Positions 20,301-64,000 of a stretch of 64,000 nt of DNA are shown piece after piece. Each line of letters opens with the position of its first letter. The stretch's first letter is position 1. Below the pieces are notes generated by a model that was given only the letters and a program-made list of their open reading frames with translations, made no database searches and was not told where the DNA came from. The position numbers and the translations under genes are program-made. Source of the DNA: Marsupella aquatica (taxonomy: Eukaryota; Plantae; Marchantiophyta); contig OZ316895.1 in assembly GCA_973895155.1 (NCBI GenBank), positions 4,901,181 through 4,965,180 of the forward strand. The letters are read 5' to 3'.

Positions 20301-22757
20301 TTCTAGAAAATTTCAGGTTTCATTCAGGGCGATCAAGCCTCGTAATGACCTCACCGGATTTCTCATGAAGGTACTGATGACCCATCTTCTTTCCCTAAGA
20401 GGATTGTCGCTCAATTCCTTGATGCACATTCTTCTTTCCCTAAGAGGATTGAGGCTTTCTGCCGGACTTGAATTTTACAACGAATGATTGGACATAGCGG
20501 ACAATGAGTTAAGTTCGGGAAGCTAACCTGAAGAACTATGGTGGAATGGTTCGTGGACTGTTTCTTTCTATCTCATACTGGTGTATTTACTTGTGAACAT
20601 AGATATACCAATGGTGGCTGGAAGCTGTTACTATTCCTTTGTTCATCGTAGGCTTCTACCTACCCCAGGTGTGCAGAATACACCTGGTCCCCCAGATTAT
20701 ATTGATTTATGAGAGTACCCTTTCTTTTGATCGTCGATTCATCCCGTGGTCGATTTTTAGGACTCAGGAACTAAGAAAGCGAATCATTTCCGTTAGAATT
20801 GCCTGCCCATTGTGAAAGTCTTGTCCTTCCATCATTGCAGGGTGTATTTATGTACTGGCTAACCAATAACTGCTTCAACTTAGCTCAGGTAACATCCGTT
20901 TCAGCAAAAAAGGGTTTGATCCTCTATCCCGATGAGTTCTGAAAATGGCCTTTACAGCCCATGCTCGTATTGCGATTTTACGACTCCTATCATAACATGG
21001 CACTACTAGAATGGTTTGCAAAGCAAATCGATTTGCATTTTCAATCATACAAGACCTATTGCTCGTCACTATATTCATGATTAGATCACTGAAACGAGGT
21101 CAGCTTGGTTCTTATCCCACATGGTTCGTATGCTGAATTTGTATGTCTGGTACTCAGTATATATGAGGGCATTCAAAGTGCTTCAAATGTTTCCAATATA
21201 CACTTTCTTTGCTAACCTCCATTACAGTCAATAGCGTTGCAGAATGACGGGTTCCGTGGGAGAGTTGGTCTCCCTCGATTAGCAGAGTTGGAGAAGCTGA
21301 GATCCAAACAAGCAGCCCAACCTGTGCATGCTGACAATAACGATCTGGAAGTATTGAATCTGGATACGCTTCTGAAGGTATCCCCTTTATCCTGTGTTAC
21401 AGCGTAGGATTACACATTTTAAAGCCAGATTTGATCGGAACAAGAGTATTCCCACTTACGCTGTCTCTTAAACGCCTAGATGACTGTTTGGGCACTTTGA
21501 TCGATGTCATCAGCTCTCTTCGGATCATGTATCCAATCCAGGATTTTGTCAATGAGTTGCGGGTCATGCTTTTGAACAAAACTCATATATCTAGTTGTCG
21601 TTCTGGATGTATATTTAGTCTGCAACAAGTCACGTTACACAGGACCGTGATGAGGAAGCGTTAAAACTTTTGGAGTAAGTGTTCTGCCTGCCATTTACAA
21701 GTTTGAAGTTCATGTTGGCGGAAACATGTAGTGTCCTCTTGCAAGTTCGGTCCCCTCGTCTGACTCCTTTCCCATTTTATTTCAAGCATTGTTCGCGGCA
21801 GAGTTGTAGGAGTCAATTCTCTAGGAGACCGCCGCTGAAGATGAGTATGTGCAACTGCCTAATCTGGAACTCAATTTTGAGCAGGTTTCTGGTCAAGAAA
21901 TATCCAGATGAAGCTGAGGCATACAACGTTTATGGAATGCTACACATAAAGAAGAAACAGTGGTCTGAGGCAATTGAGTATTACAGCTTAGCCATCTCTA
22001 AGGTTGCCACTTACAAACTACTTCCTAGCTTCAATCGTTAGGAGACCCAATGCTCCTTGTCAGTCAATTGCAGCTCATTTGTAAGTCTAAGAATGTATCT
22101 AAGTAGGGTTGATAGGACCTTGCTGTCACCTGTAATCGGACTGAAGAGGATGCTTGGAACTACATGTAGGCAACCGACGATTCACAGCGCATCACTGCTT
22201 TTATGGGAGCAGGAATATCTTTGTACAATCAGGTTGGTTCCCCCCTCTGCCTTTGACGTCTGATGCCCAGTCAAGACGATAAATAGATGTGAAGTCCGTA
22301 CGTGCAAGTCCCACCCCCACCCCCACCCCCTCCCCCTGTCCCCAACACCCTTTGAATTTTGTATTTCGATGTGGATAAAGATGAAAGAGGCCCTTGCTTA
22401 CAATCCCACTACTGGTACAGGGACAAAAGCAAGAGGCTATTTCTGTGATGAAGCCTCTGGTTGATATCAAAGTGCCTCGAGAGCCTGTAATTCGGCAAAA
22501 GTACCTGCGGGCACTAGTCACTCTGGGGAGGTATGCCAGTACAGTAGTGCATTTCCTACGTGGAGTGGTACATGCTTTTGCTTTAAGTCATCGAGTCGAC
22601 AGATGGGAGCTCATTAAAGGAAGTCGCAATGTGCAGTGCTTTGAGCCAGGAAGGATTGAAGGAAGAAGCCCTTTCTGTGTTGAAGGTGGCCGTGAAATGG
22701 GATCGTTCCATAGAGGTATACATCAAGCAATTGAATGACGATTTGGATAACAGGTAG
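17328..22757 (+). CDS. OXA2: Mitochondrial inner-membrane insertase of the YidC/Oxa1/Alb3 family with C-terminal TPR domain (plant OXA2/COX18-like), multi-exon
   Basis: Arg/Ser-rich presequence-like start MAFRRATGELLLVAQRRSFSYF. Spliced exons read LHTLTGTSW/WVTIIGSTLAFRTALFP (18780-19030), LQ/APLF..ALRGMA (19350-19820), GGALWFVDLT (20060), LPQ/GVFMYWLTNN (20660-20870), all Oxa1-family motifs. TPR-like exons AEAYNVYGMLHIKKKQWSEAIEYYSLAI (21910-22000) and AFMGAGISLYNQ/GQKQEAI follow. Stop TAG 22755-22757. Confidence 0.88.
17502..17522 (+). repeat. (CAG)7 microsatellite encoding poly-Gln in the OXA2 N-terminus
   Basis: cagcagcagcagcagcagcag in frame with WQQQQQQQK. Confidence 0.9.
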
Positions 22758-23519
22758 AAGGTGAACTTCTAGTCTAGTTAGTAATAGATGAAATGAGATG
22801 CAAGAAGGTTTGCATTTTGAACCTTTAAAGTGGCCATTCACACGTACAAATGGAATAGTGGAGTAATTAACAGCAGGGAAATCGACAATAGCAAGCTGGG
22901 TCAGATATCAAACATATTGTACGTTTTAGCGTTGGTCGCGCTGCCACCTAGCCAAAACATGTATTCGCGAAGCATTATAATGGAAAAACACGTTGTCCAG
23001 AGCATTCTTGGGGCTATCGCGTCTAGATTTTAATTTCTTTCCAATTTCCCGAAACGGCATATCTTTCCGGACGGACGCATCTAAAACGTCGAATTTGTGC
23101 GGTTGGCGCCAGATTCTCTTAAATTAATTTTGTTATGCGTCATAGTATTCGTCACTCCCCACAACCTGGTGTGGAAAAAACGCGTAGAAAATACAAAGCT
23201 AGTGTCAAGTTGAAGAGTAAAGGATGCCTTGGATTCGTATGAAATTATGCATCTCTTCCACTGAAACCACGGATGCCTTGCATGGTTCAGAGACCTGCTT
23301 TCTGGATGTCTGGGCAATTCTACCGTTTGAGCTGAATGACTGGCATGCATCCGAATCCTCCACTGAATTATGAAGGATTACTGTCAGATCACAATTTGTG
23401 GAAAAACGTCTGTGTGTTTGGCGAATCATCGCATTTGATTCTTTAGCAAGCTAGGTTTCCGGATCTCACTTCCTGTACAATCACTTGTGCATATATGATG
23501 GAGATCTACAGTAGGATTT

Positions 23520-26500
23520 ATGGGAGAATACGACGACGTCGTTTCCATAGAAAAGTCATCCCACGGAGGTAGTCCAGCTCAATTTCTGCAAATGATAATA
23601 TCAGAAGTGAATGCTGTTGTTGATCTGGTGGTGAAAGCCACTACGTTTACCACTCAGTTGCAGGATGGGTGGTTTAAAGGTTCGGCGGAGCGTGAGTCAT
23701 TTCAAGACAAGGTTTGGGTCCTTAGCGCAAAGCATGTGCTGTGGAGCGAAACAACTGCAGAGATATGGCATTGTCGAGGACAAGCATTTACTGCGTCTAG
23801 TGAAGGCAGCCGAGGAAGCTCTCGAGAAGCAACAGCAATCGGTGCGAAAACTCAAGAAATCTCCATACAGGAGATGGCAGAAGAGGATATTCCCAGGCCA
23901 GCTCTCATACTTACTGGATAAGGTGTTGGAAATAGTGGATGCTGGCCCGCAATTGCTTGCAAGCAGGGTTGCCAACAACGATCTAGTGGATAGATACTTG
24001 GCACAGACTCCGGCCTCATTGCCTTTTGGTCCGGATAGAAACTATGTGCCAATTGCAGATTCAATCGTGGCGGTACGAAATACATTGGAGAATACAGAAG
24101 GACCCCGAGTAGTGACAGTTTACGGAGGCCCAGGAATGGGGAACAGCAGCCTACTGAAATATTTGGCTATTCACTACCAAGAAGAGCAGAAGAGACAGCA
24201 TGCAGGGAAGAGAGTAACCCAGCTGCTACTCGAACTGCTGGAGAATCTTGGGTTTGGAACTGGATATGCAACTCCAAATGGCTCTAGCAGCACTGGCACA
24301 GATGTACACGAAGCGGATTACACTGCTTTATCTTCAAATCAAATCAAACTCAGATCTCGCTTGGCTGAGCAGGAGTTGCTGGTCATCTTGGATGACTTAT
24401 GGCAGCCAGAGGTATTGCAAGAGCACCTCGTTCCTGCAAAGGGCGTTAAATGTTTGGTCACATCTCAAATGCGAGACGTTCACCGTTTTGCTGAACAGAT
24501 CCAGATAAACAGGCCCACCCTCAGAGAATCTAGCCGGATCTTGGCTAACTATACTGACGGACTTCCAAGAAAGGGTGAATTTCCTCACAATGTGAAGTTA
24601 AGCTTTACAGCTCTGTTTCGTCAGATTTGCAGTAAAATGATGTTCACCACTCACGGCTAAGGTTTTGGCAAGACTCCGTTTCGAGTATTTAGGCTTTTGA
24701 TAAATTAAGGCATGAGCCCAATTGTCATATGTAATACAGCCACTGTTATAGTTCCAATTAGCATAATCTTGTGACTGACACTTAACCCTAGTACTTGCCT
24801 CTGGCAGAGCATTGCAGAGGATATTTTGGACTGTTACATATACACCCGCTCCCTTTGGTCAACATTGGCATCAGCATAAACAGGAGTCGGGCAACTGATA
24901 TCAAACAGTGGGATGTGATAAAGAAACATATATACAACCACCTTGATGAGAATGATAACACTCCACCTGCCTTTGACAGGCCATACAGTCTTCCCTTCAG
25001 TGCATCGATGATGCTTATGGTAGAGTCGCTGCCTGCAGAGGCACAACGGCTCAATTTCTTGGTGGCTTTGTTGAAGGGTCAAAAGTTGCCTGAATCTCTA
25101 GTGAAGTATACAGCTTTATTCCAAAGGATAATCATGAGAGGTGTTTGGAAGACAAGTCACTGATTAAATTCACTGTACGAGGAGATAGGTCAAATGTAGA
25201 CATTCATAGGTTGAGGACGCAATACATTTTAGACAGAAAAAAGCCTGAAGTGAGATCTATAGGTTCTCAGATATTAGCTGCCAGTGGGGATCAAGATGTA
25301 GCTAGGCTTAGAAGGACCGTGGAAGCAGAGGAAACACTGGTCACTGTTTTAAGCGCGATTTACTACGATGAATCGCTCAAAGATGTTGTAGCGGGGACTT
25401 TAGAGAACCATATTACTTTCATCAATGATGGGGTCATTCCACGGAGTTTGAATGCAGAGACAGACAGACTTGATTTCGTTGAGACTGCAAGACGAAAGCA
25501 TAACCAAATCCGAGGCCTTGTTTGGCTCTTGAATGGTGATCATGAAGAAGACAACTGGAAACAACAAGTCCACGAGTCTGCAAAGAAGGTATTGTTAATC
25601 ATTTACCTTCGATCAAGTTAAAATGTCTCAGTTGTGTATTTCTGCTTCAAAGATTTCGGTGAATTACATTTTTTGAAACAGAACATGTCTCAGTTGTTCA
25701 GATATAGACCGATGCGAATGCGCTTAATGTTGAGCTTGTCCTGTTTGAAATCAGTCGTGCAATGCTGCTTATTAGTGAACGTCTCCTTTTCTCAAACTAA
25801 TGATAAGATTAATTTTGCGTCTACCTAAATTTTAGTAAACGAGAAACGCGATGTTCTTAATAGGCTCCGCGTCCGCATCACATTGTATAATTGTGAAGTG
25901 AGTGCAGTTTTCTTGCAGTTTGGATAGCAACCACATTTATCAATGGCTAATACTCGGGGCTTTGGGTGATTGTGACAGATTATTGCCAAGGGAAACTGGA
26001 GGACAATAGTATGGCACACGTACTCCAACTCATGGCTCTCTATCATTGCCACGCAGTAGATTCCTGTGAGCGCAGTGCGACTTTTTCAGAGGCATATGCT
26101 TAGACAAATCAAACTCTGTTGAAGCTGTTGCATAACAATGCCAGATCAATGAAAGAACGAACTGATGTCATCGCTGCTCTTCTGCATGTTCTTGGTTATG
26201 AAAGCAAGCACTACATTTGCAAATTTGCCGCAAAGTATGAGAAACCAATTATTATTTGCCATGAGTTGAAATAATAATCTGAGTGAGTCTGCCACACGTG
26301 CATTGGCACGAGATTCGCATGGTAGAGGGATTCTTACGATGGCAGAGCCTCCTGAACTTTTGGAGCTCTCTTTGTGGTACTAGTAGAACCTGGGAAATGG
26401 CGGGTTCAAACTTGCAGTATACATTATGAGTTATTTATGTCAGTACCGGCTTTCGGCCCTCAGAATTGCTGTTTCGTTGGACGCTTTTAAAACGCTCTTC

Positions 26501-33629: not shown

Positions 33630-36600
33630 GAAAGACAGATTCTAATGGACTGGCCAAACTCAAGATTATTCGAGAAATGAGTGTAGTCGGCGCACTGTGT
33701 TAGTATCGTCGCACTGGTCTAGTGTTTGAATGAGTGCACTGAGTGTGCTCTGAACAATTCACTGCGCCATTCCTAATCCTAAGGATATAGAAGTAAAATC
33801 AAAATGTCAAGAACCAGATCATGTGGATTTTTGACGAATGATGCACAGCAACAGCTAGCGCCCTTAATGTGAATGTCATTACAATAGACATCCACATTGA
33901 GTATGCTAGCTGCTTGCTGGGCAATGTGCTTCGAACAATTCACAGCTCCATTCCTAATCCTAGAAATTCTATAGACAGGTTCAATAGGACTGGCCAAATT
34001 ACAAGATTATTCGAGAAATGAGCCGTAGTACGTCGGCGCACTGCGTTAGTGTAATCTCGCTGGTCAAGTGTTTGAATGACTACAATATATGAGCTACTAT
34101 ACAATTCACAGCTTTATTCCTAATCCTAGGATATATGAGTAAAATCGAAATGCTAAGAGCAAGATCAGGTGAATTTTTGGACGAATGATGCACAGCAACA
34201 GCTAGCGCCCTTAATGGGAATGTCGTGAGAAGTAAACAGACATCCGCATTGAGTATGCTAGCTGCTTGCTGGGCAACATGCTTTCGAATAATTCACGGCT
34301 CCATTACTAATCCTAGGATATATGAGTAAAATCGGAATGCCAAGAGCGGGATCAGGTCAGGTGAAATTTTTGGACGAATGATGCACAGCAACAGCTAGCT
34401 CCCTTAATGGCAATGTCATTGGACACCCACAGACATTCGCATTGAGCATGCTAGCTGCTTGCTGGGCAATATGCTTCCGAATAATTCACAGCTCCATTCC
34501 TAATCCTAGGATATATGAGAAAAATCGAAATGCCAAGAGCAAGATCAGGTGAATTTTTGGAGGAATGTTGCACAGCAACAGCTAGCGCCCTTAATGAGAA
34601 TGTCGATCATTGGACACCCACAGACATCCGCATTGAGTATGCTAGCTGCTTGCTGGGCAATATGCTTCCAAATAATTTAGAGCTCGATTTTTAATAGATC
34701 CTAGTAAGGATATATAAGTAAAATCGAAATGTCAAGAGCGCGATCAGGTGAATTTTTGGACGAATGATGCACAGCAACAGCTAGCGCCCTTAATGGGAAT
34801 GTCGTGAGAAGTAAACAGACATCCGCATTGAGTATGCTAGCTGCTTGCTGGGCAACATGCTTTCGAATAATTCACGGCTCCATTACTAATCCTAGGATAA
34901 ATGAGTAAAATCGGAATGCCAAGAGCGGGATCAGGTGAAATTTTTGGACGAATGATGCACAGCAACAGCTAGCTCCCTTAATGGCAATGTCATTGGACAC
35001 CCAAAGACATTCGCATTGAGCATGCTAGCTGCTTGCTGGGCAATATGCTTTCGAATAATTCACAGCTCCATTCCTAATCCTAGGATATATGAGAAAAATC
35101 GAAATGCCAAGAGCAAGATCAGGTGAATTTTTGGAGGAATGTTGCACAGCAACAGCTAGCGCCCTTAATGAGAATGTCGATCATTGGACACCCACAGACA
35201 TCCGCATTGAGTATGCTAGCTGCTTGCTGGGCAATATGCTTCCAAATAATTTAGAGCTCGATTTTTAATAGATCCTAGTAAGGATATATAAGTAAAATCG
35301 AAATGTCAAGAGCGCGATCAGGTGAATTTTTGGACGAATGATGCACAGCAACAGCTAGCGCCCTTAATGGGAATGTCGTGAGAAGTAAACAGACATCCGC
35401 ATTGAGTATGCTAGCTGCTTGCTGGGCAATACGCTTCCGAATAATTCACAGCTCCATTCCTAATCGATCCTAGGATATATAAGTAAAACCGAAATGTCAA
35501 GATCGAGCGGGATCAGGTGAATTTTTGGACGGATGATGCACAGCAACATCTAGCGCCCTTAATGGGAATGTCGTGAGTATTAAACAGACATCTTCATTGA
35601 GTATGCTAGCTGCTTGCTGGGCAATGTGCTTCGAACAATTCACAGATCTATTCCTCGTCCTACTTACGCATTCTATGAACAGGTTCTGTAGGACTGGCTT
35701 ACAAGATTTTCGAGAAATGACTGTGGTCGGTGCACTGGGTAGTATCATCTCACTGGTCTAGATTTTGAATGAATACAATGAGCGAGTATATATGATTTGA
35801 AGAATCCACAGCTCCATTTCTAATCCTAGAATGTATCGGTAAAATCGAGAGCCAAGAGCGGGATTATAAGAATTTTTGGACGAATGATGCACAGCAACAG
35901 CTAGCGCCCTTAATGGGAATGTCGTGATAAGTAAACAGACATCCGCATTGAGTATGCTAGCTGCTTGCTGGGCAATGTGCTTCGAACAATTCACAGATCT
36001 ATTCCTCGTCCTACTTACGCATTCTATGAACAGGTTCTGTAGGACTGGCTTACAAGATTTTCGAGAAATGACTGTGGTCGGTGCACTGGGTAGTATCATC
36101 TCACTTGTCTAGATTTTGAATGAATACAATGAGCGAGTATATATGCTTTGAACAATCCACAGCTCCATTTCTAATCCTAGAATGTATCGGTAAAATCGAG
36201 AGCCAAGAGCGGGATTATAAGAATTTTTGGACGAATGATGCACAGCAACAGCTAGCGCCCTTAATGGGAATGTCGTGATAAGTAAACAGACATCCGTATT
36301 GAGTATGATAGCTGCTTGCTGGGCAATGTGCTTCGAACAATTCACAGATCTTTACCTCGTCCTATAGATTCTAGATATGAGCAGGTTCTGTAGGACTGGC
36401 AAAATTACAGGATTTTCGAGAAATGACTGAAGTCGGTGCACTGAGTTAGTATCATCTCACTGGTCTAGAGTTTGAATGAATACAATAAGCGAGTTTATAT
36501 GCTTTGAACAATCCACAGCTCCATTTCTAACCCTAGAATGTATCGGTAAAATCGAGAGCCAAGAGCGGGATTATAGGAATTTTTGGACGAATGATGCACA

Positions 36601-37560
36601 GCAACAGCTAGCTCCCTCAATGGGAATGTCGTGATAAGTAAACAGATATCCGCATTGAGTATGCTAGCTGCTTGCTGGGCAATGTGCTTCGAACAATTAT
36701 TCACAGATCTATACCTCGTCCTATAGATTCTAGATATGAGCAGGTTCTGTAGGACTGGCCAAATTACAGGATTTTCGGGAAATGACTGAAGTCGGTGCAC
36801 TGAGTTAGTATCATCTCACTGGTCTAGAGTTTGAATGAATACAATAAGCGAGTGTATATGCTTTGAACAATCCACAGCTCCATTTCTAACCCTAGAATGT
36901 ATCGGTAAAATCGAGAGCCAAGAGCGGGATTATAGGAATTTTTGGACGAATGATGCACAGGAACAGCTAGCTCCCTAAATGGGAATGTCGTGATAAGTAA
37001 ACAGACATCCGCATTGAGTATGCTAGCTGCTTGCTGGGCAATGTGCTTCGAACAATTATTCACAGATCTATACCTCGTCCAATAGATTCTAGATATGAGC
37101 AGGTTCTGTAGGACTGGCCAAATTACAAGATTTTCGGGAAATGACTGAAGTCGGTGCACTGAGTTAGTATCATCTCACTGACCGTCTAGAGTTTAAATGA
37201 ATACAATAAGCGAGTATATATGCTTTGAACAATCCACAGCTCCATTTCTAATCCTAGGATATGTGAGAAAAATCGAAATGCCAAGAGCGGGATCAGGTGA
37301 ATTTTTGGACGAATAAATCACAGCAACAGCTAGCGCCCTTAATGGGAATGTCATTAGAAATCCAGACATACTCATTGAGTATGCTAGCTGCTTGCTGGGC
37401 AATATTTTTCGAGAAATTCACAGCTCCAGTTCTAATCGTGAGGATTCTATAGACAGGTTCTATAATTATAGCCAATTAATTAATACAAGAAATCATTCGA
37501 GAAATAACTGTTGCCGGCTCAATGTATCAGTATCATCTCACATACTTAGTGTTGCATGAG
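33630..37560 (+). repeat. Recently amplified part of the hairpin array: ~190 bp monomers, a ~574 bp trimer, and ~350-360 bp units
   Basis: Spacing between successive 5' arms: 347, 193, 187, 199, 188, 187, 199, 195, 351, 351, 356, 359, ~363. Spacers are near-identical between copies. Confidence 0.93.
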
Positions 37561-50569: not shown

Positions 50570-50691
50570 CACTAGATAGAATCCCTTTCTCTAGCAATAG
50601 CTAGTCGTGCTTCTGACTCCACAAAGTTACACTAGATAGAATCCCTTTCTCTAGCAATAGCTAGTCGTGCTTCTGACTCCACAAAGTTACA
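50570..50691. repeat. Perfect 60 bp tandem duplication overlapping the TDP1beta stop codon/3' UTR
   Basis: cactagatagaatccctttctctagcaatagctagtcgtgcttctgactccacaaagtta occurs twice in tandem. Confidence 0.95.
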
Positions 50692-53600
50692 GTCTCTGGC
50701 ATTTCCTTCCGATCATGGGCGTGAAGGGATCAATCTGGCTCCAAAGGAGTTCTCCATACTCTTCCTCCTGTTGCGAGTTTGACGCAGACTCGAGACACAG
50801 CTGAGATTCATCCCCATTATCATCTGTGTCAGATCTTGCCATCTCTATCTCGCTATCGTCACTTGAGCCGCTTTCTAGAAGTGACAATTTACTCCTCAAG
50901 CTCTCCGCAACGTTATACATTGCTTTCTTTGTGGCAGGTTGATCCACGTCCAGATATTTTGGAGCCGGGACACAAAAGGGTAACACGAACTTGTCCAAGC
51001 CCAACCTCTCGTTATCCACGTCTGATTCCATCTTGCTCTCGTCCAAATTAGGCTTCTGAGCGAGTGGTTTAAACTGAAGTAATTTTGGACCTTCATTCGG
51101 AGGAGGCTCCACAAATACGAGGCCAACCTCGTAGTTAGAGATAAACAAGTTACAACCTAAGGTGGTTGGACGGCAGTTGCAAGGATGAACAGCTTTAGCG
51201 TGCGGCCTACCCCATGCAGCTGGGCTGAAATTATGTGATCCGCAGTAGACCCAACCGTAAGGAGCCTCTCTGGGATGGCTTTGAAATCTCCTTTGTGCCA
51301 CCTGGTCAAGAAATGAACGCGCTAATTACGGGGTCCATTTCAGCTGAACACAAATTATTGTACTTTAACTAGCATTGGATATGAGGAGTCCTGGTGACTG
51401 ACCTTCACGTGCATGGGGATGCCCTCACGTTCAGCTGGAAATGGAACGGCGTCATAGAGGATGCAAGCTGTCTTCAATCTCTCCCATGTGCTCTAAGGAA
51501 GAGACAGTTGTAAAAAGTGTTAGAATTTTGATATCTTACACAATTACCTTCATCAAGTAAATTAATTCAAATCTCAAAGTGAGGTACAGCAGGAACGCAA
51601 GTGAGGAAGAAATAGATAAACACGGTCACCAGTTCAAGAGGGATTGCCTGAGGCTCATACCTCAGCAAAGCACAGAACTGCTTGGTGGCTGAAAAGTCCA
51701 CATTTGGCAGCTTTTACACTTTGGATGGTTGGAAATACCACTCCTATAGACGGAGCGTTAGCTTCATGTTCAGTTGTCCAGGCGCCCCACTGCAGTAAGA
51801 AAAGGCGTGAGAACTCAAAATAAATGAACGTAGAAAATTATTATCAGGGAAGCCCGTTGTGAGATTGATCATCCTCATTCAAATGTCCAGGAGAACGCTT
51901 TGTCATAACTATGTGCACCTGAGAGTCTGACTCTTCAGACAAATCTGAACGAACTGCTTTCTTCCCGGCAGCAACAGAAAATGCAGCTAAAAAGGCAGCA
52001 TCCAAAGATGTTCCAATGGAAGATGAACCTGGCATGGCCAAAAGAGGTACGGAAATCTCAATGATATTGACAGATATAAATTGAGTTCACAAAAAAATGC
52101 GGAGTTTGCTCAGAAGCTTAATTACGAAATAATCAAAACGGAAAACCCCATCAGAAAGAAACAAAAACTCTTAGGCCAGTCAGTCGAAGTCTACATAACG
52201 CAAGACTTAAAAGTGACTGGGTTTACCGTAGATGAAATTGGTCTCGCTTGCGTCTAGCCAATTGAACTTGGATAGAATCTGCAAGATTTACACCACAAAC
52301 AATTAGCATACAAGAAACTATTACCAAATTGCTCAACAGATAGTAAGCTCGAAGCGTTTCATATGTCGGACTATTTTGAGAGGAAGCGTCGTCCACGTAC
52401 CAAGTCTAACTTTGAGGACCTTCCAAAGACATTCATAAGCATCCAAAGGAAGTCATTTCTAGTAGGTCAGCAGGTTCTTTACTGATTTATCTAATGCATG
52501 GTATTCATGCCATAAACGCAATTTCAATAGCTAATCATCATCCTGACCTTAGATTCATTGCAAGCAGACACACTTTGGGTGAGAGACTATCTACCTGACG
52601 AAGTCGCCACAATCCAAGAGGGCGCTCCATGTTCCGTAACAAGCCGCATAAGGCTATGGTGTGATGAAGGGATAAATCCTTGGTTGAAAGGGATGAAAAT
52701 GTCCGGCCCTGCCCAGAAAGATGGCTCAGGTTTGTACAAGCTACCAAAGAAAACTAAACTCCTAAGAAAAATTTGGAAAAGGTCCTTACAATCTTCCTAT
52801 GCACCTTTGAAAAGGAGTTGAATTTCCATGGGTAAGAGAATGCTCGATTATTATAGACTTTACAGTTTATCACCATAGTAAATTACATGACATTCCTTGA
52901 TGAGAGAGACCACTCACCTCAAAAACATATAGTACAAGCTGTGGAACTTTCTTGCTCATTCCATTCGCGAGACCAATCACTTCATTTGGCCGGATGAAAG
53001 CTGCGAATGTGCAGAGACCACTGTCATAAAGGGGAGCAACCCACTTTGCTACAGGTCGTGGCAGAAAACCTATGTGTACAGAATTCGCTGGAAGAGAGGA
53101 AGACAGTGAGTCCCCAGCCACCTGCAAAAGATCTTTTCCATTGACCACCTCCATGCCACCTTGGTTTGAGTCTGAAGACACAATTACAGTCACGGCATTT
53201 GAATCGGCGGTCAAATTTGTGATTCTTTCCAATTGAACTTTAACCAATCCACTCTCCAGTAAATCTGTATTGTTCAGAATAGCTGCAAGGGTTCGAACTC
53301 GTTTCCCACATGGATCAGCGGAATCCTTGAACCTATGACTTACTCCAACCACAGTGCTCTGAACAGCAGCAAGCAACTTTCTAGTTCGCCGAACACCATT
53401 CTCTGCAGTTAATAAGTCCTGCGGTTAACGGAGCCTGTCAGTAATTGCAATGTCCGTCGCTTGCGAATATTCCAACTTTTTATCAAAGTCAGTAGTCTCT
53501 CGGTTATGTCCACATCTCGTTTCAGACGAAAACCTGCGGACTTACGTGAGGGTTATTAATACTTAGGAATTTCCACATGTTCACAGAGATTTACATATTT

Positions 53601-56487
53601 TAACAGATAATCTATCATGATTTATGCACGTTTTCCGTACATTTGAACATGTTTCATGATCAAATGAAGTTGATCGACCGCCACTTCTTTGGTGAAAAAG
53701 GACTTTACTGAGGGTGCACTCCACAACGAGCGCTGGCTTATGTGAAAGACTAGTGTACTTAGTAGCTGAATTGTCTCAGCTTGGAGGTAAGTCCAAATTG
53801 TTTACCTTCTTCACCAGGTCCCGTACAGAAGCAGGAACAGGTGGGCATGGACAGCCATAAAATCCTGGAATAGAGGTGACTAGTGATGCTGCTGCATTGC
53901 TGAAGTCGAACTCAGCCAAATCAAGAGCCCAGTGTGCTGCAGAAGGTACGTCTGCAACAAGGGAGGCTATGAAAGAAGACAAATGCATCGCAAAATCGTT
54001 TTGCGTGAGCTGCGGAACCAACACAGTTTCATCGATACCAGATGTGCAGAACAATGCCTCATAGTCGCGTAAATCTTTACGGGGAAAGTCCTGCCACCAG
54101 ACACTGTTGGTGACGTGCAGCCACTGCATGAAAGGAAGAAGTTAGAAGAAGATTCCGGTGTAAATTTCCTGGCAACATTTATGTGCAATAAGATGAACCT
54201 TATTTGGACTTACTTCACTGGTGACGCACAACAACGCAAAGAAGCCCATTGATTGGGCTCAATCTTCTACGTCATTTGAGTGACAAGCCACATCAACATA
54301 ACTAACCATGTGAGCCTTCACCGCGTGGGCTCTCACACACCCCGGTTCAGATCATTTTCTAATACTCAATATTTTGTTCGAAAATGTTCGGCGTTACCTG
54401 AGAGCGAGTGAGATTGGCTGAGGTAACAATTACACGAATCCTATCCTTTCGAGGCAAGAGAAAGATCTTGGGATGGTGACATCCGATCCCCTGTCTTTTC
54501 TCTGTAGTAAAGCAACAAGAATCTGGAAAACCAGGATATCTGCACCAAATTACCACTGGTCGGGTCAAAAGTACATTTGTGAACACAACACTACGTTCGC
54601 AAAACAGGCGTGACCTAAATGAAAACAATTGATATTCACAAATGGTACACGCTCTGGGCAAAAGATGTCTGTGAACTCACACAAGTTTGACGTTGGGCCA
54701 ATTAGGAAAAGGTGAAGAAGTACGTGATTCTTCAGCTGTACTCCAGCAGCGATCACGGTCATGACAAGCCACAGTGACGGGCAATTCAGGGGATATATTG
54801 TGTGAAGAAAGGAACCTGCACAGAATGCTTAAACCTCAATTCTATCATTAACATTGCTAGATTTAGAATTACGAGATAAAGATTGTTCTCCAAACAATTG
54901 TAATAGTACTAGAGGCTTAACCTAGAGTCATCCCTTGCTTTGAAACTAAAGACATTGGAAATCGTCTCTTAACGGCACCAAACAATTCTCATCCACAGGG
55001 AGTGGGCTTCCAATTTTTTCTCAACAATGAACTGCGAACAATTGTCCTGAACGAACTCACCACATGATGTCACTCGTGAAAGTCGCAATAAATATGCCAA
55101 GAAGACCGTCTGTAGGATTCAGAAGCTCTTGCAGAGAAACTGTCTGCTGAGAATGGACTTGTGAATCAGGTTCCAAGTCTTTCAGTCTATTTAAAAGAAA
55201 CCCAGATCCAGGGGATTTTCCATTCAAAACTCCAGTATCTGCATTGGACATGTGTTCCTGAGCGAGCCCCGTCCTCTCCAACTCGTCCAGCGTGCCTCGA
55301 TCGTCTTTCACCTCTCCTCTTAGTGAAGTTTCATCCATCACAGGCCCAGCACTGTGAGACTTATTTCCAGACATAACCTTAAAGTTGTCTGTTTCTGGTT
55401 TCGTCGCCAACTCTGCACTTGAACCACTTCTAGAGTTTTCAATATCAATAGCCTTGGCCAAGGAAATTCTCGCAGATGCAGGAGTGACAGCATCGCCATC
55501 GATCACTTGGCACCTTGATGGCCTTTCCAACAGCATTTTCCTATCCTGACAAGGTGGACTAGTCCTGGCTGAAACTTTGGCATTGCATTCTTCCGACAGT
55601 TCCAAGTTATCAAAATTTCGTTCCAGTATTTTAGAAATCTCTTTGCACTGATTCAATCCATGACCCTTGAGAACCGTTTTGCCGTCGTCCAACCCTCGAT
55701 CCTGAACCTTCGTTAACCCTGAAGACCCTTCTTGTTGTTGCCTCAACAGTCCCATAATCTCAGCGGTGGACCGTTTGGGTATCTTTCTCACTCTAGCTTT
55801 AGACGAAGTAGACGACCGGCGTTCAAATGAGATGGAACTCTTCTCATCTGTCGATCTCCATCCTCCCTCCTTACAACTAGACAAAGGCCGCTTCCTACAA
55901 AAGGTAGGCAACGGGATACAACCTTTCTGAGATTGTTCAGATCTTGGATTTCTAAGCATCCTTACATCTACTTGGACTGCTCTGGGAGGGTGGGTCGGAC
56001 ACAATGTTTTCACCTCAAAGAGATCCACCAGCTCAACAAAGAACCCAACAGCATCGCCGAACCCAGGATCCTCCACAGTCCGAGCATCCATTGTGCAGGC
56101 CACGAGAGAGACTTCAGATCCAGGATTCAAAATGCGACAACCTCCCTGCGCCAATTTCTTTCCATCCACATACAGTCCGTTCAGAGACGGCTTCATTTTC
56201 TTTCCGGGGGCCAAAACCGATGATGATGGCGTTACATTTGCACTGGTGATAAGAGCGTCCACCGGCGCACCTTCAAAGAGCAAGAGCTGGTTGGTGATGT
56301 TGTCCCAATAGACTTGGCAATGCTGGCGGCTCACCCGCGCATCTGAGAAAACGACATCGCAGCAGCTCCGTGATCTGCCAAAGGTGTAAACCCGTCCAGG
56401 AACCAAAAGCAACTCCCGATACTTCTTTCCAGTCCGTGCGTCGTACATTGGCGCACGAAGCACTCGCAGTTTGAACATCGTCGTCAT
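50687..56487 (-). CDS. TDP1beta: Tyrosyl-DNA phosphodiesterase 1 beta (FHA + PLD/HKD-type TDP1 + HIRAN), multi-exon
   Basis: FHA motifs FGRS..CDVVF...VSRQHC..SLNG; IATFTSDIMW/FL; first catalytic motif HHPKIFLL..IRVIVTSANL; VWWQDFP; LVTSIPG; HIRAN-like DSNAVTV..IGFLPRPVAKWVAPL; IGVVFPT; second catalytic motif PMHVK/VAQRRF; WVYCGSHNFSPAAWG; ISNYEVG. Confidence 0.92.
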
Positions 56488-56744
56488 CGCCTTCTGCCGA
56501 AGTCACCCGATGACCTCGACCTGGATCCACACCTCCTCCACTAAGAAGACGGGCGGAGTTTCCTATGGTCTCCGGTCTCCTCACAATCTTGGACGCCATA
56601 CAAAAACTGAGAAGCCGAAGAGTCCGTGAAATGCATGGAAAAGACAGAGTTGAAAAGAATTGAGGAACTTGTGTTGAAGGCGTGATGTAATCGACGTCGA
56701 GAAATGGGGAGATCGATAGCCAGAAAAAGTTGATTCGGCGCATC

Positions 56745-57725: not shown

Positions 57726-58037
57726 CGGAGTACAGATTCCGCATTCTCTCGGGCAGAATGACTGATCACAGATTGCTGGTTTGGAAATTTGTCATCCGCG
57801 CGGCAAATTTGCCGTCGACACTAGTGTACAGCAGGACAGCGAAAGGGCGGGAGGAAGCGGATAACAAATTTCCTCTCCTCTGGAATCCGAATTTCCGATT
57901 CTCTCGCCTCTCTCGTGGAGTCGTGGAGTGTATGGGCTACTCTAAACTCTTTGTACGGTGTGTAGCCTTTTAGGCTGATTTTGGAGCGAACTCCAAAATT
58001 GATTGCACCACTAATTACAGTTCATTAATTACAGTCC

Positions 58038-58532
58038 ATGGTGTAAAGTGCAATGTGGATAGTTGCATTTTTAATGATGGTGTTAAGTGCAATGTGGACA
58101 GGTGCATTTTAATCATGGTGTTAAGTGCAATGTGTAAAGGTGCATTTTTAATCATGGTGTTAAGTGCAATGTGGACAGGTGCATTTTAATCATGGTGTTA
58201 AGTGCAATGTGTAAAGGTGCATTTTTAATCATGCTGTTAAGTTTTCCCCCATCCCTGGGGTTCACGCGGAATAAAATTTAAATTTAAAAATAAAAAATAA
58301 AAAATAATTCATCCTGTTAAGTGCCATGTGGACAGTTGCATTTTTAATGATGGTGTTAAGTGCAATGTGGACAGGGCATTTTTAATGATGGTGTTAAGTG
58401 CAATGTGGATAGGTGCATTTTTAATGATGGTGTTAAGTGCAATGTGGATAGGTGCATTTTTAATCTGGTGTGTTAAGTGTAATGTGGAAAGGTGCATTTC
58501 TAATGGTGTTAAGTGGAATGTGGATAGGTGCA
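58038..58532. repeat. 38-39 bp minisatellite in two blocks (~5 and ~6 units)
   Basis: Unit atggtgttaagtgcaatgtgga(c/t)aggtgcatttttaat(c/g). The blocks are separated by an A-rich stretch and bracketed by the direct repeat tccaaaattgattgcaccactaa (57992, 58566). Confidence 0.93.
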
Positions 58533-59528
58533 CTTGTTGATTAGGCTGGTATTATTGGGTAAAAATCCAAAATTGATTGCACCACTAATGCACCACTAAC
58601 TACAGTCAACATTTCCACGGATCAGTTTTTTGGACATTGCTACTAAAGATATTCAAATTTACAATAGTGTTATTGTTTTATTCTTATTAATAAATATCTC
58701 ACCGGTTGGGTATATTGGTTACCCCAGTGTTATGTCAGAACTAAAAGCCCAGATGGACTGGGATCGGGACAATGTCCACTAAGCCCTGGTGGACAAACAA
58801 AACTTACATGGACTGGGCCAAAACACTCGAATATGCTCCCGCAATGTTTGTTCATTCTTGTTGTGTACACTTTCCCGAAGGATCCGACGGGGCAGGGCTG
58901 TGAATGTTGCATGCAAGGAAAAATAGTCAGGAGCCGTCTGGAAGGGCTGGCTGGGGCAGTCGGGCTTCGAAGGGTTAAGACAGGCATGCGGGCAGGCGAC
59001 CCACCCCAAATTGGGGAGGTCAACTGCTCAAACAAGGGATGGGAAGCATTTATGGCCGTTGCATGTCGAGGCCCTAACCAGAGTAACTTTTCTGAACTCA
59101 TGAAGGAAAATGATGGCAAAGTGATTAAACCACACCTGCCACTATAAAAGCCTCGTTCCATGTCTCACTACTCACCATAAAAGGTGGAACATTAGCTGCA
59201 AATTTTGTGGAGTACTTGTCAAAAGAAGGTTTTGCTGTCAACACCTTTTGTGGAGCTCAAAGCCCATTTCTGAACTTGTACTCCTTAGAATGAGAGCTAG
59301 AGGTTACCCGTAGCCCTTTATAGGGGCAGGTGTGGTTTAATGGAAGGAAAGAGTGGCAATGTAGATAATACACAAGAAAACAATGGCAATCTAGTGAATC
59401 TCAATAAAAAACTGTAGGAAGATTTTCAATTAGTACGTCTTTAGTGGCAAAGTAGCTAAAAATTATCCCGGATTAGTCTTTTGATCATGTGTATGCCTTA
59501 ATGCAGTCTCACTGTTTTCTTCTCATGG

Positions 59529-60239
59529 TGTCGTGACATATAGTATCGTAGCCATAGTGTATCAAAAACATACAAGTCGCTGGCAAGGCATATGTGCAAG
59601 CTGCTAGCAACCAACATGCATAGAAAAAGTCCAATCACAATCACAAGTGCCAAGAAAAAGCAAATGAAATGGTATGTACGTAGTGGAGGTGTAAACCTCT
59701 GTATATAAAAGGCGTAAGAAAACAATCGTACTGAAATCGAATCGAAAACCGGCGGGATGCCAAGATCGGCCGGGAGCATCTAATAAATCACTGTGTGAAT
59801 CCCGTGTACGGAACTGACGAGCACTGTCTGAGCTCTATCAACAGCGATTCAAGAAGAACTGAAAACCCACAAAGAAAGACATGCCCTAAGTAAACAAAGT
59901 TCTGGCGTCACACTAACAAGCGTGTTTGCTTCAAGAACGCCTGGCATTTGCTATAAGAACATGTTGCTAACTCAAGTAGTACACTAGCCCTAACTACATA
60001 CCTAGCGGGCATGCGAGGGACATGCCGATGTGCATAAGAGGCACTGTCCCTCGGCATGACAGCTGTCGTGACATATAGTATCGTAGCCATAGTGTATCAA
60101 AAACATACAAGTCGCCGGCAAGGCATATGTGCAAGCTGCTAGCAACCAACATGCATAGAAAAAGTCCAGTCATATTCACAAGTGCCAAGAAAAAGCAAAT
60201 GAAGTGGTATGTACATAGTGGAGGTGTAAACCTCTGTAT
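59529..60239. repeat. 176 bp direct repeat (59529-59704, 60064-60239) in the 3' non-coding/LTR region of the gypsy element
   Basis: tgtcgtgacatatagtatcgtagcc...gtggaggtgtaaacctctgtat occurs twice with few differences; the right copy abuts a G7 polypurine run on the minus strand (60240-60246). Confidence 0.9.
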
Positions 60240-63200
60240 CCCCCCCAGACCACAGCCAAAAGGAGGGCTGAAGAAAATTCAGGTAACACGTGGAGCACAG
60301 GAAGGGCAAAACCATAACCCTTCTGGCACCTGGGTAAATTCAGGCCGAAGGCCGAAAAGATGGTACCCTCCATTGCAATTGTCACACAGCAGCATCTGGT
60401 CAGCATCATCAATTCGCAAACACACTTTGCAAGGGTAGTCCACAGGTGGAATCCAAGTAGAAGTCACAATGGTGGGATCCAGGTTAGGCAGATGACAAGG
60501 GGCGCAATTCTTGGCATTGTCAGCAATTGTGCGCCCATCTGCCCCTTGTAACTCTAGCACTCCAGACGGTCGAATAGCTTTAACCCTGAGAATAGTACAA
60601 CTGGTAGAGGTGTCCAGGGTGTCGTTAGCTTGCCGCTGCAAGTACACAAAATCTCCCACATCAAACTTCCTGACCTTGGGCTGAAAAGTGCCCCCTCGTG
60701 TGTGTCTAACGCAGTGTGTCCCTATGTTGTGCAATGGCCAAATTATCCATGGCCATGGGCATAACCCTCCTGAATAGGGCAGCCCTCTCAGAGATCACAT
60801 CAGACCAAGTCACAACTGAATCCAAGTCCACCACCTGAAGCATGTGAGCAGCAATAGCAGAAGGTGGAACTGGGTGATGACCAAACAACAAGAAGTAGGG
60901 AGAAAAGTTAGACAATGCTGCATGTCTAGACATCCTATACCCCATGATGGCAATGTAGGGTAAGGCCAGGTCCCAATCCTCCTTGTTTTTGGTGAGGCAA
61001 ATCTTTCGGAGACCCTTCTTGCATGTCTAAACCATGCGCTCTGCCAAGCCATCTGCCTATGGGTGATCTCGTGATGTCCGGCGATGATCAATGAGGGCCT
61101 GATCAAGCAGCTCCTGGAACTCTCCTCTAAACTCTGAGCCCTGGTTAGTGAGACATTCTGCACAAGCTCCAAAGCGGCTGAGAACTTGTTGCAGGAATGC
61201 CTGGCTAGTGCTACGGGAGGTCTTATCCGGCAATGCCACAAGTTCTATCCACTTGGAGAAATGCTCTATCATGATCATGATGTAGAGATTACCCCGAGAT
61301 GTGAGGGGTAATTCTCCAGCCAAATCACATGACCAACGATAAAACATGCCTTGAATAGGGAGTGGATGAAGTGTGGGTTGTCGAGATGTGAAAGAAGTCC
61401 TTACCCTATCACACTGCTCACACTGGGCAATAACATCTTGAACCTGACCATGCATGCCTCTCCAATGATAATGAGGGACCAAGAGGCTGTAAGTCCTCTT
61501 AACACCAAAATGACCAAGCCCCTCTCATGAATGGGTGGAACCACCACTTCCCTGTCTGGCAAGCAGTGCACAAGATGATCTCCCTTCCACAAGTAGCGCT
61601 TGGACCTTTGCTGAATTTGGTCTCTCTGGGCAGCAGTAACATGGATGGGGTACTCCCCATGCTGCAAAAATCTTAGAGTGTCGATGTCCTCCCATATGTC
61701 CACCACAGGTTGGTCAACAACATAACATGGCAGCAAAGCAAGATAGGTAGATGCATGAAAGGTAGGCAGGATGGAAACCTGGTCAAAATCCTGTCATGCA
61801 TCTGAGGAATCATCAGAGGCAATCAAAGGACTGCGGGACATAGTGTCAGCATTTTGATGTGTCACACCAGGCCTATGAATTACCTCAAAATCATACTCCT
61901 GGAGTATGAGCGCCCAACGAGCAAGCTTGCCAGTAAGCTTGTCGTTGGTCATCAACCACTTCAAGGGTTGGTGGTCGGTGTAGAGAACAAACCTGGTCCC
62001 ATAGAGGTAGGGCCTATAATGTATGATAGCCCACACAACAGCAAGGCATTCACCCTCATAAAAAGAATAATGACTCTTTGCCTGATTGTTGCTCCTGGAT
62101 GCATAGGCAATGACGTACTCTTTACCTTCCTCATCATGCTCCCAGAATGGCACCAATCCCAAGGGCACTCCAATCTATGTGTAGCACAAAGACCTTGTTG
62201 AAATCAGGTCTTCTCAGCACCGGGTATTCTGAGAGCTTCTCCTTCAAAGTGGCAAATGCTGCCTCAACATCTGTACTCCATGTCCAAGTCACATTCTTTT
62301 TCAACAAAGCATACAATGGGTGTGCAATGGTACTGAAATCTTTGATGTAGATCCGGTAGTAATTGCACAACCCAATAAAACTCCTCAAAGTGTGAACATC
62401 GGTAGGAGTGGGCATTTCCAAGATGGATACCACCTTGGCCCAGTGAGCCATGGTTCCATTTGGAAGAATGCGATGCCCAAGATATACTACTGATCTGACA
62501 ACAAATTCACACTTCTTGGGGTGTATCTTTAGGTTCACCTTCTTAAGCCTCATGAATAGTTCCTCAAGGTCAAGTAGATGCTGGTCAAATCCTTTGCTGT
62601 GGACCAACACATCATCAATGTAGCATTTCAGAAACTCAGCACCTTGAAGAACCTGGTCCATGACTCTTTGAAAGAATAAGGGCGCATTTTTCAAGCCAAA
62701 TTAATGGCATCACCAACCACTCCCATAGTTGGTTACTACCATGGAAAGCTGTTTTCTTGCGGTCCTTTGCAAGCAGCAAAATCTGGTTAAAGCCTTGCCT
62801 TAGATCCACAAGAGTGAAGATGTCTGAGTCTCCAATGCTGTCAAATAGCTCCTCTGGCCGTGGCATGGGGTACCTGTCCTGGGGTGTGACCAGGTTTAGT
62901 GGCCTGTAGTCCCCACACATGCGCTTCTCTGTCCACAATCCACTGGAATCCTTCTTTGCTGGCATCACTGTAGCTGCTGCAAAATCTGATGTAGATGGCT
63001 AAATAAGACCAGCTTCATATAACTCTTGGCACCTCTCATCCACCAGCTGCCACTCATGCTTACTCAAACGGTGTCTCCGCCTGAAGATAGGTGTTTCATC
63101 AGCCAACTCAATGGAGAACTGCATAGTCTTGCACTTACCCAAGTCCTTCATAGAGAAAGCAAACACATTCTCATGCTTGAGGAGCAAATTCAGTAGCTGG

Positions 63201-64000
63201 TCCTTCTATCTTTTACTCAGGTGGTTGCCCATGATGAATGTGTAGTTGGCAACACTAGTCTGAATAGGACCTGATGTACTCGTGCTTGAAGAGCCAGAAG
63301 TGCTAGCCTCTCCACTGTCCAAGCTGCTAGCATGCTGCTGATAAGGTGATGAGGCCTCTCCAAGGCCTGTTGTATCTGTTGCTCTGGTCTGATCCACACC
63401 ATGAAACTCAGAAAAAATATCAGCCACGTTACAAGGGACCTCCTCCCCCCCAACACTTGGACTGAAGCGGTGAGTGTTGAATAGAGGTAAGTGCACTTGG
63501 TTTGGATGCCATGTAGCAGCACCATGGAGTGGTAGGGCTGGAACTCCTGATGCTGGATGAATGTACATCTGAAAAAGGATGCAAGTGACCAGAAGCCAAG
63601 TGAGAGCATTAAGATCCATTACCCTGCCAAGTAAAGCATTCCTGGCCAACCTGGTGATCTGGGTGTGACCTGTAGTACCGGATTGGAAGCCCATAGCCCG
63701 TTCTCTCTCCTCAGGACTAGGTTCATCCCAAGTACCGGTAGAATGTCGATAAACCAGGCCAGGACCATCACCCTGAAAGGCATGTGCACCTGGAAAGGAT
63801 ACAAATGTAGGCCAAGCAACACGGGGCTGTCCAATGGTATTGGCTGGATACCAAGGTGCTGGCTCTTGCCGTGTAACCGGTTAGAAAGAACTGTCAGGAT
63901 CCAAAATCTGGTCCACTGTGAGGTTAGTGTCCGTAGATGTGTGGTGAAGAGCTAACTCCAACAAGGAAGGTGGTGCAAGGTTAGTCCAAAAGTTACGAAG
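60240..64000 (-). mobile_element. Ty3/gypsy LTR retrotransposon, defective, 5' part outside the window; order DNMT3-like MTase - RT - RNase H - integrase - PHD
   Basis: RT: RMCGDYRPLN..DRYPMP, DLRQGFNQI, KTAF, YIDDVLV, LGH, LRSFIGLCNYY. RNase H: DWSALGIGAIL, IAYASR, ECLAVVWAI, YTDHQPL. Integrase: HWRGM..CEQC, SCDLAG, IEHFSKW, QGSEF, GLAERMV. PHD: CKVC..LCDNC..H..WFCPSC. The RT-RH-IN order is gypsy-type. Several frameshifts and stops. Confidence 0.93.
63595..64000 (-). pseudogene. C-terminal half of a DNMT3-like C5-cytosine methyltransferase domain within the retrotransposon polyprotein
   Basis: My translation from 64000 leftward: LRNFWTNL..LTVDQILDPDSSF*..PTFVSF..EPSPEERERAMGFQSGTTGHTQITRLARNALLGRVMD. 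This parallels DNMT3A motifs VIII-X as I recall them ([40 protein letters not shown]). In-frame TAA at 63881-63883. Confidence 0.8.

Follow-up and report, generated by a model that had tools for sequence, protein, structure and literature searches.

A DNMT3-like cytosine methyltransferase in the Pol frame of a decayed Gypsy retrotransposon and its bryophyte and algal relatives

The locus described here raises the question of whether a DNA methyltransferase that reads in frame with the reverse transcriptase (RT) of a retrotransposon belongs to that element and, if so, what it might do there. The stretch of DNA that was analysed, referred to throughout as the window, is 64,000 nucleotides long, and its minus strand contains a decayed Ty3/Gypsy retrotransposon, of which the 3' 4.5 kb lie inside the window. 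The minus-strand frame that begins at position 64000 reads LRNFWTNL...EERERAMGFQSGTTGHTQITRLARNALLGRVMD, traverses a Ser/Thr-rich linker and continues as LLLKHENVFAFS. The explanation that we favor, with a probability of about 0.65, is that of a decayed Gypsy element with a Pol-borne DNMT3-like enzyme that likely methylates the element's own cDNA, and with integration from a 2-LTR circle.

Anatomy of the window copy and identity of its methyltransferase domain

Downstream of the methyltransferase frame, Pfam matches to RVT_1, RT_RNaseH, Integrase_H2C2, rve and a C-terminal PHD finger follow one another (Table 1), and these matches, together with the stops and frameshifts among them, identify a dead Ty3/Gypsy copy. 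The frame is interrupted by a TAA within the methyltransferase part and by a TAG where RT begins. Because stop-free relatives are open at both positions, and because at 63208 the contigs of three sequencing runs all differ from the window, these stops are regarded as lesions of this particular copy. A third stop and a frameshift lie within RT and another frameshift lies in RNase H. The copy in the window is dead.

Several other features of the window may be recorded here. On the minus strand, 50690-56502 is occupied by a host gene of several exons that encodes FHA, HIRAN and tyrosyl-DNA phosphodiesterase domains; its FHA exon matched five hypothetical or unnamed proteins, and among the matches to its phosphodiesterase exon Streptophyta were the commonest. 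On the plus strand, a TPR exon (21679-22038) and an NB-ARC exon (23635-24657) possibly belong to a single NLR-like gene at 21679-25621, and 14231-14686 holds an ABCA-type transporter exon (Pfam R1_ABCA1). Tandem arrays with units of 195/386 bp, 351 bp and 39 bp are found at 34103-37423 and 58037-58532. A MITE-like pair of 30-nt inverted repeats, 158 nt apart (59124-59341), adjoins the 3' end of the element.

Table 1. Features of the retrotransposon copy in the window, in the order in which the element reads.
Feature	Position	Strand	Evidence and remarks
C-terminal part of DNMT3-like C5 cytosine methyltransferase	63563..64000	-	77-79% identical to the PF00145-bearing proteins P0002/P0021; truncated by the window edge; holds the tail of motif VIII, target-recognition region, motif IX (63686-63724), motif X (63611-63652) and stop TAA (63881-63883)
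Ser/Thr-rich linker, methyltransferase to RT	63209..63562	-	Open in frame; weakly constrained, pN/pS 0.51
Ty3/Gypsy reverse transcriptase	62455..63208	-	Pfam RVT_1; stops TAG (63206-63208) and 62999-63001; frameshift near 62700
RNase H	61971..62286	-	Pfam RT_RNaseH, E 6.9e-30; frameshifted near 62140
Integrase, H2C2 zinc finger and rve core, with stops	60826..61524	-	Pfam rve, E 1.5e-12; Integrase_H2C2, E 4.7e-11
PHD finger at Pol C-terminus, followed by the stop codon	60279..60449	-	Pfam PHD, E 2.3e-10
Seven-G run directly 5' of B1, predicted polypurine tract	60240..60246	-	G-rich run also precedes B1 in related loci
Repeat B1, 176 nt, CACGACA at its end	60064..60239	-	97% identity to B2
B/A joint CACGACA-GC-TGTCATG, near-palindrome, predicted integrase attachment site	60055..60070	-	2-nt spacer in 12/12 loci examined; outer ends are the same heptamers
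Repeat A2, 357 nt	59705..60061	-	Mate A1 predicted at the element's 5' end, beyond the window
Predicted self-priming sequence inside A2	59847-59860	-	
Repeat B2, 3' end of the element, last bases CA	59529..59704	-	Predicted target duplication in the adjoining 59525-59528

The identity of the truncated domain was assessed with a profile built from 57 distant relatives without L002, P0020 and P0177. The 146 residues of the window score 181.9 bits against this profile and the best of 1000 shuffled versions scores 2.1, so that the match is not due to chance. Searched alone, the fragment gives no match to Pfam PF00145 and no meaningful match in the PDB, because motifs I to VII lie beyond the window edge. 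Proteins that are 74-79% identical to the fragment do match PF00145, with scores of 36.5 bits (P0002), 28.5 (P0004) and 28.4 (P0021) against a curated cut-off of 22. In these three proteins the motif order is unrearranged, with ELFGG, GWECQGFS, IENT and HRLRN in succession, which we take to be motifs I, IV, VI and VIII. The full set, comprising motif I (FxG), the Cys of motif IV, the Glu-Asn of VI, the RxR of VIII, and motifs IX and X, is therefore present when the tail of VIII, IX and X in the window are read together with the remainder in relatives at 77-79% identity. In an alignment of 60 rows the motif IV Cys and the motif VI Glu are found in 60/60, and the two Arg residues of motif VIII in 60/60 and 59/60. 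The residue before the motif IV Cys, which is Pro in the usual PC motif, is Glu in 50 of 53 copies; across the rows of the wider family it is Glu in 34/60 and Pro in 23/60.

A profile of eight family rows retrieved DNMT3A first from the PDB (E 3.8e-10), followed by DNMT3C, DNMT3B, DRM (5e-5) and HhaI (1e-3). A structural model of the domain of locus L002, predicted from the 60-row alignment, has a pLDDT of 97.2; a single-sequence prediction reached 33.6 and was not used. The top Foldseek match of this model is DNMT3A in complex with DNA (6f57, E 3.3e-19, TM 0.75), and the best VIA match is DNMT3B (Z 29.7, rmsd 2.4, 269 residues aligned), with M.MpeI at Z 25.8 and HhaI at Z 23.8. Inspection of the sequences and of the predicted fold thus indicates that the domain is a DNMT3-like C5 cytosine methyltransferase, with DNMT3 as its nearest solved sequences and folds and with its motifs not rearranged.

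These results bear on a preliminary description of this DNA, which had proposed that the end of a DNMT3-like methyltransferase, with motifs VIII, IX and X, runs in frame through a linker into RT. The frame and both of its stops read as claimed, the score against the family profile agrees with a C-terminal methyltransferase part, and the resemblance to DNMT3 was recovered by both the PDB profile search and Foldseek. The anticipated DNA_methylase match was obtained above the cut-off in the three relatives named above. As to the upstream motifs that had been expected, motifs I and VI and the catalytic Cys of motif IV are present in the relatives, but motif IV reads EC, not PC.

The family and the selection on its domain

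Metagenome contigs were scanned with the methyltransferase as the query, a design in which copies without the domain are uncounted. At least 222 matches resulted, and 80 loci were kept. The N-terminal half of the methyltransferase lies upstream in 78 of these 80, and RT lies downstream in 67; among the other 13, 11 end too soon. The full domain order in the family is Gag-zinc knuckle-PR-MTase-RT-RH-INT-PHD. Together with the window, the kept loci comprise 57 sequences distinct at 97%, with the domain at the same position and in the same frame. A stop-free methyltransferase domain is present in only one of the 80, L002, where methyltransferase, RT and RNase H share one intronless open frame of 847 residues; none of the 80 has a whole open Gag-Pol. 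The window's own subfamily is represented along the element by 5269 and 2805 contigs of two runs, and a single 863-nt contig from run X6 spans its methyltransferase, linker and RT. We conclude from this arrangement that the family has multiple copies and that the methyltransferase is integral to its Gypsy Pol.

Between the window and L002, at a pS of approximately 0.73, pN/pS is 0.19 for the methyltransferase part (95% interval 0.14-0.26), 0.11 for RT and 0.51 for the linker (0.39-0.67). Comparison of L002 with L004 gives 0.21 and 0.12 for the two halves of the methyltransferase. Between subfamilies the methyltransferase shows a dN/dS of 0.07-0.13 when corrected and a pN/pS of 0.12-0.22 when uncorrected. 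Among close, decayed copies the median dN/dS is 0.40-0.44 for the methyltransferase and 0.39 for RT, a rise shared with RT that is expected from decay after insertion. These substitution patterns show that the domain is under purifying selection and was therefore retained during the active life of the lineages.

Among the relatives are proteins named from Sphagnum magellanicum, S. compactum and the liverwort Calypogeia fissa, with three further proteins from Closterium, and in these the methyltransferase sits after the protease or before RT. The window shares 44 of 59 residues with Calypogeia, compared with 33-41 for seven other close relatives, and in the frameshifted tail 27 of 50 positions match Calypogeia, compared with 17-24 for the 80 kept loci. 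In a tree, the window, Calypogeia and the Sphagnum pair form one group with a support of 100, within which the branching is unresolved. The host of the window element is probably a bryophyte and perhaps a liverwort, as far as these similarities can tell. The remaining 59.5 kb of the window gave no blastn match to the 80 kept loci. The data do not call for a recent horizontal transfer between Sphagnum and the host of the window, because synonymous sites are near saturation; an older transfer may have occurred. A viral donor was also considered and rejected, in that the best 80 viral loci match only the generic N-terminal motifs, at 25-44% identity and with E values of 4e-11 or weaker. A regular expression for the PHD residues gave 0 matches in the relatives. 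Two incidental observations concern individual sequences. The element in L002 is adjoined at 16563-17951 by a PPR gene ending in a DYW-type motif, a family assigned by eye that is typical of land plants. The NCBI record of P0265, a methyltransferase of the same family, bears the name of a bacterial MAG, Candidatus Obscuribacterales, probably because eukaryotic sequence contaminated that bin.

When 1.84 billion representatives were searched with a profile, 377 clusters (50% identity) scored E < 1e-30. In most of the best 150 of these 377, the domains follow a second order, RT-RH-MT-INT-PHD, and typing of 146 full domains gave 93 with this order, 15 with PR-MT-RT and 38 untyped. The second group, with the methyltransferase between RNase H and integrase, is thus the larger; it includes P0003, P0031, P0053, P0087 and others. 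The PR-MT-RT elements group together in the RT tree (36 rows, SH-aLRT 99) and in the methyltransferase tree (39 rows, SH-aLRT 98); these trees, which hold 29 of 67 second-order proteins, are unrooted quick searches run without bootstrap and without host DNMT3. One of the 15, P0110, falls among the RT-RH-MT-INT-PHD set.

The preliminary description had further inferred an apparently land-plant element and had called for intact copies and dN/dS to be examined. The relatives named from Sphagnum and Calypogeia agree with that inference, and the value of 0.19 between the window and L002 is one of purifying selection. Intact copies were found to the extent that the L002 domain is free of stops, but not as a whole open Gag-Pol.

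Split repeats, predicted priming and a proposed route of integration

The gene order PR-RT-RH-INT and the DDE integrase are those of Ty3/Gypsy elements. The ends are different from those of an ordinary member of this group. In place of two matching terminal LTRs, they have the form A...B-A-B; full-length loci, seven of which have both ends, are laid out as A-ORF-B-A-B, and the window holds the 3' half of this layout, with its two B repeats 535 nt apart. On this organization, the element functions as a Gypsy element without being a canonical LTR element. The A1/A2 pairs of full-length loci are 84-92% identical. The outer termini are TG...CA, and an exact 4-bp target duplication flanks seven of the nine copies with both ends (5/7 long and 2/2 short copies; two of the seven long copies have no exact duplication). 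The inner B/A joint combines both end heptamers around its short spacer in every locus examined (Table 1). At the A2/B2 joint, the end of A is fused directly to the start of B, and almost all copies show the fusion exactly. A short form, in which the element stops after B1 and has no A2-B2, was also observed; L069 and L071 have both ends and are the two with exact duplications, and L003, L029, L030, L046, L048, L072 and L080 are of the same form.

By eye, no tRNA-type priming site was seen after A1. A 15-nt pairing of the end of A1 with A+165 was found in 7 of 24 copies and at 0 of 144 control positions, and pairing of at least 11 nt in 13/24 copies versus 15/144 control positions; the 15-nt run is absent in 17/24 copies. 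The partner of the A1 end lies 31-32 nt after a TATA box. In the window, A2 holds a variant of the pairing site, and a matching variant, with two compensatory changes, follows A in a loose end from run X1 (4 contigs).

Based on these observations, replication through a circle may be proposed. Transcription would begin within A, some 32 nt past the TATA box, and the 5' end of the RNA would fold back onto the sequence at the end of A1, so that the RNA primes its own copying; the plus strand would be primed at the G-run. Standard LTR replication with both priming sites would then yield a linear B-A-ORF-B-A cDNA whose ends have no TG/CA. Joining of these ends would produce a 2-LTR circle, and a staggered cut by integrase at one B/A palindrome would give A-ORF-B-A-B. 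The short form might arise if both palindromes were cut, if a 1-LTR circle were opened or by later B1-B2 recombination. Two of these steps have precedents: self-priming has been described for Tcn1 and Tf1/Sushi elements (PMC6317226), and the foamy virus integrase cleaves the palindrome at the 2-LTR circle junction, giving processed ends (PMC1180852). We consider this route fairly probable. It fits because the A/B joint fuses the priming-site boundary of A with the G-run boundary of B.

The methyltransferase could be exactly as described above and the ends nevertheless be formed without a circle, if B2 were copied from RNA or acquired by template switching and integrase acted on linear ends. 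Such copying has been modelled for split-repeat, DIRS-like elements. The exactness of the A2/B2 joint in nearly every copy, which end-joining need not produce, would be natural on this scheme, and the short A-ORF-B copies with target duplications require no circle. It is the location of the joint, precisely where A is bounded by the priming site and B by the G-run, that argues for the circle, as does the relationship of the B repeats: B1 and B2 of the window are 97% alike, whereas the B of the window and the Sphagnum-like B agree only at their ends, so that B2 was apparently renewed from B1. On balance, formation of the ends without a circle seems unlikely to us. If the circle model holds, this would be a natural retroelement for which the 2-LTR circle is the standard integration route. 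The A-ORF-B-A-B ends also explain why LTR finders that require two matching terminal repeats would miss such elements.

A proposed role for the methyltransferase and comparison with known systems

As a component of Gag-Pol, the methyltransferase would be packaged into the particle and, lying beside RT, would be the first to meet the double-stranded cDNA, as has been proposed (PMC5890265). Its likely target would be CG, by analogy with SymbioDIRS-Dnmt3 and DNMT3A in yeast, and the PHD finger on the integrase would recognize a histone tail and so direct where the element inserts. That the enzyme methylates the element's own new cDNA is, in our estimate, somewhat better than an even bet.

The observed/expected ratio of CG is 0.24 in the window copy (60300-64000) and 0.61 in the rest of the window. 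For CHG it is 1.01 in the same interval, compared with 0.62-0.77 in L002, L003, L004, L006 and L066, and the high value in the window may reflect a host with weaker CHG methylation. In related copies the decay is strand-symmetric (CG 0.19, CHG 0.21-0.23, CHH 0.07), and around Sphagnum-like loci the flanks are CG-poorer than the elements. Symmetric decay in all three contexts and CG-poorer flanks are what host silencing would give, and CG depletion was accordingly rejected as proof of self-methylation.

Two other interpretations of the domain must be weighed. It may be kept as a DNA-binding or decoy module, or act on another substrate, such as RNA, an RNA:DNA hybrid or host chromatin at the insertion site. 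The corresponding Klebsormidium domain was without activity in yeast, a result that its authors call inconclusive (PMC5890265), motif IV reads EC in place of PC, and no element-specific methylation scar is separable from the host decay, all of which would suit such a role. Among rows that share only 30-50% identity, however, the Cys, the Glu and both Arg residues are kept in 59-60 of 60, which would be unlikely for a mere binder. Further, EC and PC forms coexist in one family, with PC kept in 23 of 60 relatives, and the related SymbioDIRS-Dnmt3 domains do methylate CG (PMC5890265). We therefore doubt this interpretation and give it a minor share of the probability. The other supposes that a host DNMT3 fragment was captured once, or that the assembly is chimeric, within a dead element. 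This would account for a copy that is cut by the window edge and whose methyltransferase has no Pfam match of its own, and selecting loci by their methyltransferase leaves domain-less copies uncounted. The same position and frame in all 57 distinct sequences, the proteins named from Sphagnum, Calypogeia and Closterium, and an intronless domain under purifying selection are incompatible with a single accident, and on these comparisons a one-off capture is already refuted, with hardly any probability remaining to it.

Returning to methylation of the element's own cDNA, a broader picture can be drawn, which we offer tentatively and at odds slightly below even. The elements would form an old green-plant Gypsy lineage, extending from a zygnematophyte alga to mosses and liverworts, whose Pol couples a writer (DNMT3) with a reader (PHD), methylates its own cDNA, primes itself and integrates by way of a 2-LTR circle as the normal intermediate, cut open at an internal palindrome by the DDE integrase; hundreds of protein clusters would hold the same module in a second order.

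With these results, the range of Gypsy elements that carry a methyltransferase grows from one alga to include land plants. Further additions are a liverwort-like subfamily, the Closterium relatives, a large group with a second domain order, and a model of the unusual ends that can be tested. With 377 clusters and two domain orders, the family is much larger than the available text of the literature describes. Bryophyte genetics and methylomes make it testable why a transposon carries an enzyme of the class that silences it, and bryophyte DNMT gene counts may include element-borne copies. In the text available from PMC12344493 and from bioRxiv 10.64898/2026.05.21.726589, 'streptophytes' are given for such elements and no land plant is named; that of PMC11244446 holds nothing further on them. 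Searches for a Sphagnum retrotransposon DNMT3 or a bryophyte DNMT Gypsy, with subscription papers mostly outside their range, found none, and the supplements of the 2018 and bioRxiv papers could list land-plant copies.

Among known systems, the host genes PpDNMT3b (Yaari et al. 2019, PMC6453930) and DRM share a DNMT3-type catalytic domain with the window element. PpDNMT3b carries out de novo CG and CHH methylation (PMC6453930). Both are host genes outside any polyprotein, and the motifs of DRM are rearranged whereas those of the window family run from I to X in order. Tcn1 and the Tf1/Sushi elements (Neumann et al. 2019, PMC6317226) resemble the family in that no tRNA-type priming site is seen and fold-back priming is predicted, but they have ordinary LTRs and mostly a chromodomain in place of split repeats, a PHD finger and a methyltransferase. 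The foamy virus integrase (PMC1180852), like the one proposed here, cuts a palindrome at the LTR-LTR joint. In the virus that palindrome is formed from the cDNA ends, whereas in the window family it would lie inside the LTR, and the inserted element would be a circular permutation. SymbioDIRS-Dnmt3, which methylates CG in yeast (PMC5890265), likewise has a Dnmt3 domain inside Pol and split direct repeats; it is a dinoflagellate element with a tyrosine recombinase, in contrast to the DDE integrase and 4-bp target duplications of the window family.

The closest counterpart is KnitGypsy-Dnmt3 of Klebsormidium nitens (de Mendoza et al. 2018, PMC5890265), described there from Klebsormidium only, whose domain gave no methylation when tested in yeast. 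Like the window family it has, within a Gypsy Pol, a Dnmt3 domain that is intronless, has its motifs unrearranged and lies in the frame of RT (and RNase H), DIRS-type repeats in the order A-coding-B-A-B (Figure 4 legend, PMC5890265) and purifying selection on the domain, with Ka/Ks under 0.2. It is algal, whereas the host of the window element is probably a land plant, since Sphagnum and Calypogeia are named among the sources of its relatives. For KnitGypsy-Dnmt3 the available text mentions no PHD finger, domain order, target duplication, priming site or integration model, all of which are given here for the window family. As a whole, the shared organization indicates that the window element is a land-plant representative of the kind published from Klebsormidium.
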